Below the pieces are notes generated by a model that had not been told where the DNA came from, did no database searches, and worked only from the letters and a program-made list of their open reading frames with translations. 64,000 nt of DNA. Source: a bacterium. GTDB lineage: Bacteria > Patescibacteriota > Minisyncoccia > UBA6257 > JAGOQP01. The stretch is from the NCBI GenBank assembly GCA_021812345.1, contig JAKANP010000002.1, positions 6,394 through 70,393 of the forward strand, written 5' to 3'. Below, piece after piece: positions 2,688 through 63,252 of the stretch. Numbering within the stretch: the first letter of the stretch is position 1; every line of letters begins with the position of its first letter. Both the position numbers and the translations under genes were made by a program.

Positions 2688-3903
2688 ACGCTTCCAAAAT
2701 CGCTTTTCTGTCGGACCATTTTATTTTTTCTCCGTTTTTAATATGAATAAATTCTTCGGAGCCTTTGCCTGTGCAAATTATAGTATCACTTTTGTGAGCC
2801 AAAGAGATGGCTTTTTTTATGGCCTCTTTTCGGTCGATAATTTCAAAAAGATTTTTTTCTGAAAATTTTTTATTTAATATTCCGGATTTTATTTCATTTA
2901 TGATATCCGAGGGATTTTCTTCATACGGATCTTCATTGGTAAGTATTATCCTGTCGCAATATGAGGCCGCAACTTCTCCCATTTTCGGCCTCTTCCATTT
3001 ATCTCTTCCCCCTCCGGCAGAACCCAAAACACAAATTAATCTGCTCCCTTTGATTTTTTTTTCTTTCAGATGCCCATAAACCGCTTCGAGAGAATCGGGA
3101 GTATGAGCATAATCCACAATCGCTAAAAATGGATTTTTTATAACAGTTTCCATCCTGCCTTCAACGCCCTTGAAATCTTCGATTGCATTTTTTATATCTT
3201 TTGCCGAAATTCCAAAATTTTCGGCGACAACGGCAGCGGCAGAAATATTTGTTTTCATAAAATCAGCCGACAGCGCTTGAGGAAGTTTTATCTTAAAGAT
3301 ATCCATCGAATTTCTATTGAACCTGATAACAGGAAAATTTTTTGCGGCTCTGATAAATTCTTCCGAGTGTTTATCTTCGGTATTGATGAAAAATTTAGGA
3401 ACTTTTGAGTCAAACGCGGAAGATGCATATTCAAAAAAAGACAATTTTGCCTGTAAATATTTTTCAAAAGAGCCGTGCGATTCAATGTGTTCGGGATGAA
3501 TATCCAAAAAAACCGCTCCGTCCCAGAAAATAAATCTGTGCCGATGCTGGACAACTCCTTGAGAAGTAACTTCAACCAAGGCAACCTGACAACCTTTTAT
3601 TACAGAATCGGATAAAAATTTTTGGATAAAAAATCTTCCGGGCATGCTGTTTCCGGTGGTATTTTTGCTTATTTTATCGCCCATCTTTACGTCCACGGAA
3701 GAAATAAATGCCGTCTTCATTCCTGCTCTTTCAAAAATATCCGATAAAATCGCCAAAGTTGTAGACTTTCCCTTGGTCCCGGTAACACCGATAACTTTTA
3801 TTTTTCTTGAAGGAAATCCGTAAAACAATGCGCCAAAAAAACTCATTAACCAATGATAAACAGAAAACGAAAAAGCTTTAATTTTTTTAATGGCATCGAT
3901 CAT
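2671..3903 (-). CDS. Mur ligase family protein (MurE/MurF-like peptidoglycan precursor ligase)
   Basis: ATP-binding P-loop GVTGTKGKSTT and a Mur-ligase middle/C-terminal layout, with DRIILTNEDPYEENP resembling the MurE C-terminal motif. 410 aa is shorter than canonical MurE. Confidence 0.55.
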   Translation of the reverse strand: MIDAIKKIKAFSFSVYHWLMSFFGALFYGFPSRKIKVIGVTGTKGKSTTLAILSDIFERAGMKTAFISSVDVKMGDKISKNTTGNSMPGRFFIQKFLSDSVIKGCQVALVEVTSQGVVQHRHRFIFWDGAVFLDIHPEHIESHGSFEKYLQAKLSFFEYASSAFDSKVPKFFINTEDKHSEEFIRAAKNFPVIRFNRNSMDIFKIKLPQALSADFMKTNISAAAVVAENFGISAKDIKNAIEDFKGVEGRMETVIKNPFLAIVDYAHTPDSLEAVYGHLKEKKIKGSRLICVLGSAGGGRDKWKRPKMGEVAASYCDRIILTNEDPYEENPSDIINEIKSGILNKKFSEKNLFEIIDRKEAIKKAISLAHKSDTIICTGKGSEEFIHIKNGEKIKWSDRKAILEAFEENK

Positions 3904-42086: not shown

Positions 42087-43007
42087 TCACTTTTTTATCC
42101 TAAAAAATGAGTTGGGACCACCGGTGCCGACTCTTTCTATAACTCCCTTATCAACGAGACGTTGAACATCATATCTGACAGTTCTTTCGCTGATATTTGG
42201 CAAAGAATCAATTAAATCCTTAATATGGCAGAGAGATCTCTTGTTTAAAAGCTCCATAATAATTGAGTTTCTTTCCTTAAACCCGATAACGGCGTCAAAT
42301 CTATCTTTTTTGCTTGCCGGACTTTTTATTTCTGATTTGCCGGACTCTTTGGTTAATTCTTGTCTTGCCGGACTATTTAATGTGTCACTTTTTGTGATTT
42401 CCGGACTTTTTTCCAATAATTGACCCTCAAATATCGCCTTGCCAGACTCTTTTTGTTTATATTCAATTTCTTCTTGTTTTTCCTTTATAAAATCAATTTC
42501 TTCCCTTGCCGGACTTTTTATAGCTGGACCATTATTGACAGCTTCATCGGACTTGACCCCTAAATTAATTTTTTCAATTGATTCCGTTTTTTCTGTTTGT
42601 CTTTCTTTGATTTCAAAACCACTTTTTTTCATAATTTCAATCAAGTCCGAAACTCTCATCGGCGGTCGTGAAAAAACTTCTTCAATTTTTGGAGCATTTT
42701 CGGGAGTATTTGCCGGAGCAAGTTGTTTTTTCTGAATATCTTGTATATCCAGCATCGCCGCCCGCAAATTTCCCGTTTCTCTTAAAAGAACGCTGGTGTT
42801 TATTTGATTGATTTCTTTTATTTGTCCGGAAAGACGAATAATTTCTTCAAGTTCATCCAAGGTCTTTAAATCTTTAGCCAATAAATAATCCGTGGCCTTG
42901 TCTTCAAGACCTTGTTTTATTTTTTGTCTGGTAGTGTGTTCGGCAACTCTAAAAACCGCCCAAACCACTTCAAACGACCTCTGTGTAAAAAATTCTTTGC
43001 TATACAT
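42087..43007 (-). CDS. Putative transcriptional regulator with C-terminal DeoR-type winged-helix HTH and internal charged repeats
   Basis: The C-terminus NKRSLCHIKDLIDSLPNISERTVRYDVQRLVDKGVIERVGTGGPNSFF fits a DeoR/HTH_11-type wHTH. The middle region has repeated K/E-rich SPARQE and KSPASK units, encoded by recurring AGTCCGGCAAG. Confidence 0.45.
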   Translation of the reverse strand: MYSKEFFTQRSFEVVWAVFRVAEHTTRQKIKQGLEDKATDYLLAKDLKTLDELEEIIRLSGQIKEINQINTSVLLRETGNLRAAMLDIQDIQKKQLAPANTPENAPKIEEVFSRPPMRVSDLIEIMKKSGFEIKERQTEKTESIEKINLGVKSDEAVNNGPAIKSPAREEIDFIKEKQEEIEYKQKESGKAIFEGQLLEKSPEITKSDTLNSPARQELTKESGKSEIKSPASKKDRFDAVIGFKERNSIIMELLNKRSLCHIKDLIDSLPNISERTVRYDVQRLVDKGVIERVGTGGPNSFFRIKK

Positions 43008-61885: not shown

Positions 61886-62422
61886 ATGAGTTTATTTTCA
61901 ATTGTTTTTTTAATAATAATATTTATTTTAACCTTCGCTTTTTTATCTCTGGCAATCGCGGGAATATCTTTTGCTCCGTGGGTGCCGACAAGCAAAAAAG
62001 ACATCAAGAGAATTATAGAAATAGCCCAAATAAAAGATGGGCAGGTTGTTTATGATTTGGGTTGCGGAATCGGAACGGTTATTTTTGCAATAACAAAACA
62101 ATTACCCGTTCAGGCTGTCGGAATTGAAAGAGCGTGGCCGTTATTTTTAATTTGTTCCGCAAGAAAAAACTTTTACTCTTTAAAAGGAGCTGCCCGTTTT
62201 GAATTCGGAAACTTGTTTAAAAAAGACTTATCGGGCGCCGATGTTATCTATATATTCGGAATGCCCGGAAAAGTTATGCAAAAATTAAAACCCAAAATGG
62301 AGAAAGAGTTAAAAAAAGGAACTAAGATTATTTCGTATGTTTTTCCGGTTGAAGGCTGGAAAGAATCAGGAGTTGATAAAATCAACGGACGACCGTCAAT
62401 CTATCTTTATATAAAAGAGTAG
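61886..62422 (+). CDS. Class I SAM-dependent methyltransferase with N-terminal TM helix
   Basis: SAM-binding motif I VVYDLGCGIGTVIFAI followed by acidic motif II/III blocks. The N-terminal hydrophobic helix suggests a membrane anchor. Confidence 0.55.
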   Translation: MSLFSIVFLIIIFILTFAFLSLAIAGISFAPWVPTSKKDIKRIIEIAQIKDGQVVYDLGCGIGTVIFAITKQLPVQAVGIERAWPLFLICSARKNFYSLKGAARFEFGNLFKKDLSGADVIYIFGMPGKVMQKLKPKMEKELKKGTKIISYVFPVEGWKESGVDKINGRPSIYLYIKE

Positions 62423-62423
62423 A

Positions 62424-62792
62424 TTATTTCTTTCCCCTTCTGATTAAAATATCTTCCTGGACTTTTGAATTGTTTCTTTTAATAACCGACTGTCCGGTGC
62501 CTTTAAGCGCCTTAGCGACCATGCGAGAAATTATCAAAAAAACTTCTTTTGAATTTTTTTCACGGGTAGGATGTTTTTTATAAGTTGCCGCCAAAACTCC
62601 GTTGCGAGCAATGTGATCCTTTAAAAAACGCGCGATGGCGTTTTTTTGGGACAAGGAAAGAATTTTTGATTCGGCAAAATTCCACCATCCCCTTACTTCA
62701 ACGTCTTTTTCTTCCTGATCCGATTGTTTTTCTTTTGTTGGCTCAAATTGAATTTCACTTTTAACAATTTCAAAAATTTTATCTTTGGTCAT
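62424..62792 (-). CDS. GGQ-less paralog of the adjacent RF-1-domain (ArfB-like) protein
   Basis: The N-terminal block (IFEIVKSEIQFEPTKEKQSDQEEKDVEVRGWWNFAESKILSLSQKNAIARFLKD) aligns with the upstream gene (FFEIIKREIRFESSKSSGPGGQNVNKKNTKITGLWNFSVSKLISDEDKKRIQEKL), but SSGPGGQNVN is replaced by KQSDQEEKDV. The basic C-terminal tail is retained. Confidence 0.5.
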   Translation of the reverse strand: MTKDKIFEIVKSEIQFEPTKEKQSDQEEKDVEVRGWWNFAESKILSLSQKNAIARFLKDHIARNGVLAATYKKHPTREKNSKEVFLIISRMVAKALKGTGQSVIKRNNSKVQEDILIRRGKK

Positions 62793-62829
62793 AAATAATT
62801 TAAATTAAATGTTTTCCACCGACCGTCTG

Positions 62830-63252
62830 TTATTCATTAATACGAGCGCGGAGTTTTTTTGTTGCAGAATTCTTTTTTTTAGAAAAAATTCTGATTTCTT
62901 TCTGGGCGGGGGTTGGACCGGTAGGAATTCTTATTTTTTTAACCTTAACCGCTTTCTCTATTAATTTGGACATCAAACTTATAACATCTTTTTTATTGTC
63001 GGATTGAGAACGATTTTTTTGGCTGGATATAGCAATAGCCCTGCCAAAAATAATTTTATTTTTTAATTTTTCTTGTATTCTTTTTTTATCTTCATCACTA
63101 ATTAATTTGGAAACGGAAAAATTCCACAAACCGGTGATTTTTGTATTTTTTTTATTAACATTTTGCCCTCCGGGGCCGGACGATTTTGAGCTTTCAAATC
63201 TTATTTCTCTTTTGATAATCTCAAAAAAGTTTTTCGGCTTTTTGTTAATCAT
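62830..63252 (-). CDS. arfB: Peptidyl-tRNA hydrolase ArfB/YaeJ-like (class I release factor RF-1 domain with GGQ motif)
   Basis: FESSKSSGPGGQNVNKKNTKI is the GGQ catalytic motif in its typical RF-1-domain context. The short 140-aa protein with a lysine/arginine-rich C-terminal tail fits ribosome-rescue factors. Confidence 0.65.
   Translation of the reverse strand: MINKKPKNFFEIIKREIRFESSKSSGPGGQNVNKKNTKITGLWNFSVSKLISDEDKKRIQEKLKNKIIFGRAIAISSQKNRSQSDNKKDVISLMSKLIEKAVKVKKIRIPTGPTPAQKEIRIFSKKKNSATKKLRARINE

Follow-up and report, generated by a model that had tools for sequence, protein, structure and literature searches.

The 64,000-nucleotide stretch of bacterial DNA analyzed here (the window) carries, directly downstream of a gene for a predicted peptidyl-tRNA hydrolase of the ArfB/YaeJ type (gene A), a second gene (gene B) whose product is almost certainly a paralog of A that has the GGQ-domain fold. 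The pair offers a bacterial case in which a release-factor-domain protein, although catalytically dead, is kept under selection beside its active parent. The role that we tentatively favor for B, by analogy with E. coli ArfB and with less than even confidence, is that of a noncatalytic partner, which would act together with A on stalled ribosomes.

The two adjacent, co-oriented open reading frames described in an earlier note on this DNA were confirmed at the coordinates listed in Table 1. They lie in different reading frames. The spacer that separates them is devoid of a terminator-like hairpin, indicating that A and B are likely co-transcribed. Upstream of gene A, the -10 hexamer of a promoter-like site ends 7 nt before the ATG; this site is a pattern match only, and such sites are no more numerous in the region than expected from shuffling. 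A convergent gene lies next to gene B, its stop codon being 1 nt away from the end of B.

Table 1. Coordinates of the features of the A-B locus (position 1 is the first nucleotide of the window)
Feature	Position	Strand	Description	Basis
Gene A	62830..63252	minus	ArfB/YaeJ-type predicted codon-independent peptidyl-tRNA hydrolase, 140 aa	ORF, Pfam/NCBIfam matches
Gene A, GGQ codons	63163-63171	minus		
Gene A, basic C-terminal tail	62833-62943	minus		
Gene B	62424..62792	minus	GGQ-less ArfB paralog, shortened tail, 122 aa	ORF
Gene B, replaced catalytic loop	about 62700-62735	minus		
Gene B, short tail	62427-62501	minus		
A-B intergenic spacer	62793..62829	minus	37 nt	
Promoter-like site	63259..63287	minus	TTAATA-17-TATAAT, preceded by TG	consensus scan

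By every sequence feature tested except one equivalog cut-off, gene A is predicted to encode a normal ArfB-type ribosome-rescue hydrolase. The protein matched the Pfam RF-1 model (PF00472) above the cut-off (E 3.4e-13; 50 bits for a cut-off of 35) and scored 95.1 bits against the NCBIfam ArfB model (NF006718), 5 bits below the equivalog cut-off of 100. The miss is narrow and concerns a divergent, Lys-rich sequence in which all the sequence hallmarks are present. Database searches retrieved 13 close homologs of A (51 to 100% identity), followed by a drop to ordinary ArfB proteins at about 40% identity. In these 13 sequences, the GPGGQ core of the motif, which reads SSGPGGQNVN in A, is invariant, as are the RSQxxN motif and, at the positions equivalent to R118, L119, K122, K129, and R132 of the E. 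coli protein, the residues R, I/L, K, K, and R, respectively. These five residues of the YaeJ tail are required for peptidyl-tRNA hydrolysis and for ribosome binding (Kogure et al., PMC3950681), and all five are present in A. Together with them, A shares with E. coli ArfB/YaeJ the GGQ domain with its alpha-i helix, the Pro-rich linker, and the basic tail.

BLASTP aligned A and B over 94 residues with 33% identity (E 9e-15), and comparison of the B-family profile with the A-family profile by hhalign returned a probability of 99.05% (E 2.1e-18) over 114 columns. The paralogy proposed in the earlier note was therefore substantiated, although its extent had to be revised, since the similarity is not restricted to the N-terminal 55 residues but spans the whole globular domain (~95 to 114 positions). 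The homology that the note had also assigned to the two C-terminal tails held in part, as the tail of B aligns only to the first half of the tail of A. Searched alone, the product of gene B from the window matched no family model of Pfam or NCBIfam. At the level of the family, 13 of the 15 members matched the NCBIfam ArfB model below the cut-off (best E 8e-8), and one gave a weak match to Pfam MRP-S28. Alignment to RF-1, which had been proposed as a check on the homology, gave the match above the cut-off already mentioned for A and weak matches, below the cut-off, for 9 of the 15 members of the B family. Comparison of the B profile with PDB sequences afforded a marginal match only (ArfB-domain entry 2JVA; E 0.056), and the case for the homology of B thus rests on the profile-profile comparison and on the fold results.

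The AlphaFold2 model of B obtained from a mixed A+B alignment (mean pLDDT 79; pTM 0.67) contained, in this order, a helix, a strand, a loop, a strand, a helix, a strand, and a long helix. A control model obtained from B-family sequences alone (pLDDT 76) displayed the same elements and the same PDB matches, and the N terminus of B was helical in the AlphaFold2 models. For both models, the top Foldseek matches were mitoribosomal ICT1/mL62 chains (E about 1e-5; TM about 0.6). The models also matched GGQ domains of ArfB/YaeJ/ICT1 solved by NMR (2JVA, 2RTX, 1J26, and 2JY9), ribosome-bound ArfB (6YSS), and ~275-aa chains of mitochondrial small subunits. Presumably, these ~275-aa chains are mS35, in line with the weak match of one B member to Pfam MRP-S28.

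At the place aligned with SSGPGGQNVN of A, B displays the sequence KQSDQEEKDV; both motifs were found as the earlier note had given them. The GGQ motif is missing in all 15 B sequences. The catalytic loop of B is 3 residues shorter than that of E. coli ArfB in the alignment and lacks Gln, the corresponding position being occupied by Lys in 14 of the 15 sequences. Since GGQ is missing in every member of the family, canonical peptidyl-tRNA hydrolysis by B is excluded, as had been claimed from the window sequence. The RSQxxN motif, which is present in every catalytic sequence examined, reads PTxxKN in B. Only the Asn is kept, and its column is the only one that does not vary when A, B, and distant ArfBs are aligned. 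At the positions equivalent to E. coli R118, L119, K122, K129, and R132, B contains Leu, Ile, and Gly followed by two deletions, so that substitution or deletion has affected four of the five essential tail residues, and L119 alone is kept, as Ile. The tail itself comprises 23 to 26 residues (net charge, 0 to +5) in B versus 37 residues (net charge, +5 to +14) in A. The losses of RSQ and of four of the five ribosome-binding tail residues had been overlooked in the earlier note. In comparison to E. coli ArfB/YaeJ, B thus shares the domain fold and the family descent but differs by the absence of GGQ, of RSQ, and of four of the five tail determinants, and by a tail that is 11 to 14 residues shorter. 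Because B falls short of the defining ArfB features tested (GGQ, the tail residues, and the cut-offs of the Pfam RF-1 and NCBIfam ArfB models), it should not be filed as an ArfB.

B has kept the fold-stabilizing Lys residue located in the alpha-i helix (K53 equivalent), and 25 positions are invariant across the 15 members of the family. The whole protein is strongly basic (pI 10 to 10.9; net charge, +11 to +17). Conserved motifs that are proper to the B family include WW[DN]F, QKNxIxRxLK, YKKxPTxxKN, and TRLVAHALK, to which most members add KNPK, where the catalytic loop used to be, and a terminal EDDQxFKQxRTSSQQDxLIRRGRR motif. The tail (FKQxRTSSQQDxLIRRGRR) is among the best-conserved segments of B. 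The most derived B proteins are those of the window lineage and of its nearest relative, in which the loop has an acidic or neutral character and GTG and GVG stand in place of the EDD patch.

The B family is very small and sharply bounded, with 15 clusters among 5.8 billion proteins. A word-indexed search of these 5.8 billion proteins with B returned three clusters, and a full HMMER scan of 1.84 billion representatives returned four proteins at E < 1e-3. The 15 clusters were recovered with a profile of eight B sequences, all at E < 1e-42, with nothing further up to E 0.01. These 15 clusters and the 13 close A clusters belong to the same small clade. Inspection of nine B-carrying lineages (the window, L001, L005, L009, L012, L013, L015, L017, and L021) revealed in all nine a co-oriented gene B directly downstream of an A-type gene coding for 137 to 151 aa, with a spacer of 37 nt in the window and of 8 to 55 nt in the other eight lineages. 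Adjacency to A was still kept where B was as low as 42% identical to the window copy. The flanks of the pair are mostly conserved, with UPF0102, YebC, and RuvC on one side and usually a small methyltransferase on the other, and some of the neighboring genes vary between lineages. The B open reading frame is intact in eight of the nine lineages (119 to 124 aa) and contains a frameshift in the tail in L021. The resulting 107-aa form of B (P0046) was considered as a case of natural tail loss and rejected, since the homologous tail sequence is present in the next frame; it reflects a frameshift or an assembly error, L021 being a single short-read assembly. No B gene was found at the two nearest outgroup ArfB genes (L018 and L020). 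The gene located downstream of the ArfB gene of L018 was considered as B-like and rejected, as it encodes an unrelated protein with a hydrophobic N terminus.

In a neighbor-joining tree (100 bootstraps), all B sequences formed one clade (100%), sister to the A clade (60% support), and A plus B were split from the other ArfBs (98%). The grouping of all B sequences in one clade that is sister to the A clade points to a single old duplication. The simplest reading of the tree is that a single tandem duplication took place at the root of a small, AT-rich group of uncultivated bacteria and that B then evolved along a long branch. The duplication predates the divergence of all the B-carrying lineages. 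Since dS is saturated for most inter-lineage pairs, selection was tested with the three closest pairs only. The dN/dS ratios (Nei-Gojobori) were 0.083 for A and 0.093 for B between the window and L001, and 0.188 for A and 0.181 for B between L009 and L013. The pN/pS ratios of B, based on our own count of differences, were 0.17, 0.19, and 0.19 for the three pairs, and Fisher tests of pN versus pS gave p values of 6e-18, 0.0045, and 1e-27. Purifying selection on B is as strong as on A. Conservation in relatives and dN/dS had been put forward in the earlier note as checks; the GGQ-less copy was retained in the nine lineages inspected, with dN/dS values of 0.09 to 0.18. The suggestion that B could be a recent pseudogenizing duplicate was contradicted by these values and the Fisher tests, by the age of the duplication (bootstraps of 100% and 98%), and by the adjacency to A in all nine lineages.

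A different situation was observed in L007 and L008, where the same syntenic slot is occupied by a single gene (P0005) coding for 95 aa. P0005 nests inside the A clade, but it lacks a tail, and a deletion of 7 residues has removed GGQ. Neither gene B nor a remnant of it is present. The function of A and the B gene vanished together in this one lineage, as a functional coupling would predict, but this is a single case.

Structural data on E. coli ArfB provide a framework for the function of B. When the mRNA on the ribosome has a +9 overhang, E. coli ArfB is bound there predominantly as a dimer, which is held by an N-terminal two-strand sheet (Carbone et al., PMC7641280). In this complex, the second protomer (ArfB-2) contacts the first (ArfB-1), the P-tRNA, H69, and the displaced mRNA, and its GGQ loop and C-terminal tail are unresolved or disordered, ArfB-2 being described as "catalytically disengaged" (PMC7641280). 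The physiological relevance of ArfB dimers is debated (PMC7427801). ArfB-2 is the closest functional model for B: on the ribosome, it is a second copy of the fold that makes use of neither its GGQ loop nor its tail and supports the catalytic copy (PMC7641280). The two differ in that ArfB-2 is the same polypeptide as ArfB-1, whereas B is a dedicated paralog with a conserved tail of its own, and in that the dimer of the E. coli protein forms through N-terminal beta strands, which are not evident in B. Since a role of the ArfB-2 type needs the globular domain only, GGQ and the channel-binding tail would be free to be lost, as they have been in B.

According to the partner role that we favor, B would be expressed with A from one transcript and would work with A on stalled ribosomes. 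The tail of A would sense an empty or vacated mRNA channel, and the GGQ loop of A would cut the peptidyl-tRNA. B would bind beside A in the intersubunit space, where it would touch A itself, the P-site tRNA, H69, or the displaced mRNA, and would thereby stabilize the active complex or widen its substrate range. The ArfB homodimer of the E. coli type would in this manner have become a fixed heterodimer combining a catalytic and a noncatalytic subunit. We favor this role because B has kept the fold and lost GGQ and the tail determinants, because it is under selection, because its linkage to A is constant and the outgroups are devoid of B, and because L007, as one lineage, has lost B together with the GGQ and the tail of A. 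Several points nonetheless weigh against it. The importance of the ArfB dimer for the cell is itself disputed, and the joint loss of B and of the function of A concerns one lineage only. The tail of B is highly conserved, yet the tail of ArfB-2 has no visible role. The strands that form the E. coli dimer are not evident in B, the N terminus of which is predicted to be helical. Finally, the adjacency of A and B would also be expected if B were an antagonist of A. In a stricter form of the proposal, B would be the dedicated noncatalytic subunit of an obligate ArfB heterodimer, the homodimeric mode of E. coli ArfB, observed only in vitro, having been fixed by duplication and division of labor. 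This form, which again draws on the E. coli analogy, is distinctly unlikely. If true, it would provide natural evidence for an in vivo role of a second, nonhydrolytic ArfB protomer, and rescue might extend to ribosomes in which the mRNA channel is still occupied.

B may alternatively be a stand-alone, noncatalytic ribosome-binding protein, either structural and specific to this clade, comparable to mS35 and ICT1/mL62 in mitoribosomes, or acting as an occupier of the ribosome of the Dom34 or hibernation type, its position beside A being a mere trace of the tandem duplication. This explanation, drawn from likeness to other systems, is worth keeping in view, even if unlikely on balance. The best structural matches of B, namely, ICT1/mL62 in mitoribosomes and the ~275-aa chains of mitochondrial small subunits, are consistent with it, as is the weak match of one B member to Pfam MRP-S28. 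A precedent also exists in MRPS35, described as an inactive duplicate of ICT1 in which the catalytic Gln was lost and a structural function acquired (Burroughs and Aravind, PMC6514570), and inactive domains of the release-factor type have been proposed to act as noncatalytic A-site binders (Burroughs and Aravind, PMC6514570). B is, moreover, strongly basic, and the conserved motifs proper to it (WWDF, YKKxPTxxKN, TRLVAHALK, and the tail) would fit a new binding site. MRPS35/mS35 indeed shares with B an inactive bRF-PH domain without the catalytic Gln that was kept after a duplication of the ArfB/ICT1 type. However, MRPS35 is a eukaryotic and far larger protein that carries two additional helical domains and belongs permanently to the ribosome, whereas B is bacterial, consists of the domain and a short tail in 119 to 124 aa, lacks the flanking helical domains of MRPS35, and is encoded beside an active paralog. 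In the phylogeny, B derives from the local ArfB, independently of MRPS35. ICT1/mL62, which is an ArfB-type protein and also an integral ribosomal protein, provides the best structural matches (Foldseek E about 1e-5; TM about 0.6) but has retained both GGQ and the tail determinants and is an active enzyme, the human protein being able to work on E. coli ribosomes (PMC3950681). Dom34/Pelota follows a similar logic, as a release-factor paralog without the catalytic Gln that was kept for ribosome rescue (PMC6514570). It has an unrelated aeRF1 fold, splits ribosomes with Hbs1 and ABCE1, and is not encoded beside an active paralog, so that its likeness to B is an analogy only. Two features of the locus argue against a stand-alone protein: the A-B adjacency has outlasted divergence to 42% identity of B while neighboring genes vary, and B is missing exactly where A is degenerate, which is unexpected for an independent ribosomal protein.

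The earlier note had already suggested a regulator or a ribosome-binding competitor, and another explanation is that B antagonizes or regulates A, by competing for the ribosome or by binding the basic tail of A, for example, via the conserved acidic EDD patch that follows the long helix, and would thus restrain codon-independent release on ribosomes that are still translating. The operon-like arrangement of the genes and the conservation of an acidic patch beside the tail in most B sequences are compatible with such a role, and inactive negative regulators resembling release factors have been considered as a general idea (PMC6514570). We nevertheless regard it as improbable. GGQ and RSQ are missing from B, as are four of the five ribosome-binding residues of YaeJ, and the loss of RSQ and of the tail residues makes it unlikely that B competes with A for one site through a shared binding mode. 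Moreover, the window lineage and its nearest relative are devoid of the EDD patch, yet B is still constrained in them (dN/dS, 0.09).

A function of B outside translation, as a general RNA- or protein-binding module, would account for the absence of a family match when the window copy is searched alone and for the disappearance of every functional signature of release factors. It is very doubtful in view of the strict linkage of A and B across the clade, the conservation of the fold and of stabilizing residues, such as the K53 equivalent, and the fact that all known relatives with this fold are associated with the ribosome. Finally, a decaying duplicate, a pseudogene, or a chance open reading frame, which could be evoked by the loss of the catalytic motif and by the frameshift in the tail of the L021 copy, is extremely improbable and was rejected based on dN/dS values of 0.09 to 0.18, similar to those of A, with Fisher p values down to 1e-27, on the intact open reading frame (119 to 124 aa) in eight of nine lineages, on the 25 positions invariant across 15 members, and on the age of the duplication, the tail of the L021 copy being continued in the next frame of a single short-read assembly.

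The release-factor-domain survey published in 2019 lists RF1, RF2, ArfB, and PrfH as the bacterial versions of the domain (PMC6514570). ArfB and PrfH retain the catalytic Gln, and eukaryotic MRPS35 is the sole inactive derivative reported in that survey (PMC6514570). According to the same survey, ArfB works as a single component and has neither a conserved partner gene nor a conserved neighbor other than a pseudouridine synthase (PMC6514570). In the searchable literature, we found no report of a GGQ-less ArfB paralog in a bacterium. If B works with A, the pair bears on the dispute over the physiological role of a second, noncatalytic ArfB protomer and over the mRNA lengths at which it would intervene. 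If B is a lineage-specific ribosomal protein, it would be a bacterial repeat of the route that led to mS35 and mL62 in the mitoribosome. The A-B pair also constitutes a simple two-protein system for in vitro tests. These results have a limited immediate reach, since the B family numbers only 15 clusters, all from uncultivated organisms.

Additional scans were performed on the window and on the surroundings of the pair. At gathering thresholds, Rfam detected two tRNAs only in the whole window, and a scan of positions 62300-64000 based on E values produced only hairpin noise from palindromes. ARAGORN detected no tmRNA in the window. The PADLOC defense models gave nothing for B and two weak matches for A (E 0.002-0.005). 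PADLOC also returned a generic methyltransferase match for a gene neighboring the A-B pair. The window, from an uncultivated bacterium that may belong to the CPR/Patescibacteria, is ordinary chromosomal DNA with a GC content of about 37%, and its genes include those for PPDK, enolase, iPGM, RNase Y, PNPase, UvrD, and an H+-pyrophosphatase.

The 16-nt palindrome TGTTTCACGTGAAACA is present in three perfect copies, at positions 63681, 63735, and 63814, in the intergenic region upstream of gene A, which encodes an ArfB-type rescue factor. It has no copy elsewhere in the window, where the expected count is 0.04. We presume that TGTTTCACGTGAAACA matches the parS consensus bound by ParB. The same intergenic region also contains four to five copies of CCTTGCCGGACT and an imperfect inverted repeat of 44 nt with arms at 63534-63577 and 63619-63662. 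The sign of the GC skew flips near 60 kb of the window, and nearly all of the genes upstream are on the minus strand. With these features, the region resembles one of the partition and replication-origin type. Its motifs occur again in the related lineage L007 (4460-4860), where they precede the ArfB-type gene. Four other lineages (L012, L013, L015, and L017) have an intergenic gap of ~480 to 620 nt.

Features of the gene A-gene B locus and positions in the window
Feature	Position	Strand	Remarks
Intergenic region	63253-63880		Upstream of gene A; repeats and palindromes
-10-like TATAAT	Within 63253-63287	-	Only 7 nt 5' of the gene A ATG
Gene B loop	62700-62735
Gene B helix-end segment	62480-62501
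178-aa protein	61886-62422	+	Tail to tail with gene B, with stop codons 1 nt apart

Matches to the motif CTTGCCGGAC number 15 in the whole window versus 2.1 expected. A second cluster, at 42313-42514, comprises five plus-strand copies, of which three are exact and two carry a single mismatch each, and lies within or opposite a 306-aa ORF (42087 to 43007, minus strand).

Inspection by eye revealed no apparent Shine-Dalgarno-like sequence in the few bases preceding the gene A ATG or in the spacers of gene B, the GGQ-less paralog downstream of gene A. Together with the proximity of the -10-like element to the ATG of gene A, this suggests that initiation in this host is leaderless or relies on a very short leader, independently of a Shine-Dalgarno sequence.

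In a related lineage (L007, 5001-5288; also L008), the A-B slot is occupied by a single gene and gene B is missing. The product, P0005, is an A-type protein of 95 aa that lacks the C-terminal tail and has lost the GGQ loop by a 7-residue deletion. P0005 may represent either an ArfB in decay or a GGQ-less derivative that arose a second time, independently. In L021, the 107-aa B homolog (P0046) ends prematurely and the homologous B tail TIPGDVLARERK carries on in another frame (3290-3365), which indicates a 1-nt frameshift or a sequencing error in this single short-read assembly.

Most B proteins carry a basic sequence (KAKNPK) in the former GGQ loop and an acidic one (EDD) where the long helix ends. 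The window lineage and its nearest relative have an acidic or neutral loop (SDQEEK and NQEQK), combined with a neutral helix end (GTG and GVG). Judging from these residues, a charge swap might have occurred between two contacting segments of B, as one evolutionary event that does not amount to proof.

The 178-aa protein encoded next to gene B begins with a hydrophobic segment at its N terminus; the domain after it matches protein-lysine methyltransferases of the Sulfolobus aKMT type (PDB 5FA8 and 5JWJ; E value, 3e-26). This gene is syntenic with the A-B slot in most lineages (L001, L007, L012, L013, and L017) but not in L005, L015, and L021. The Lys-rich proteins A and B would be candidate substrates of this putative methyltransferase.
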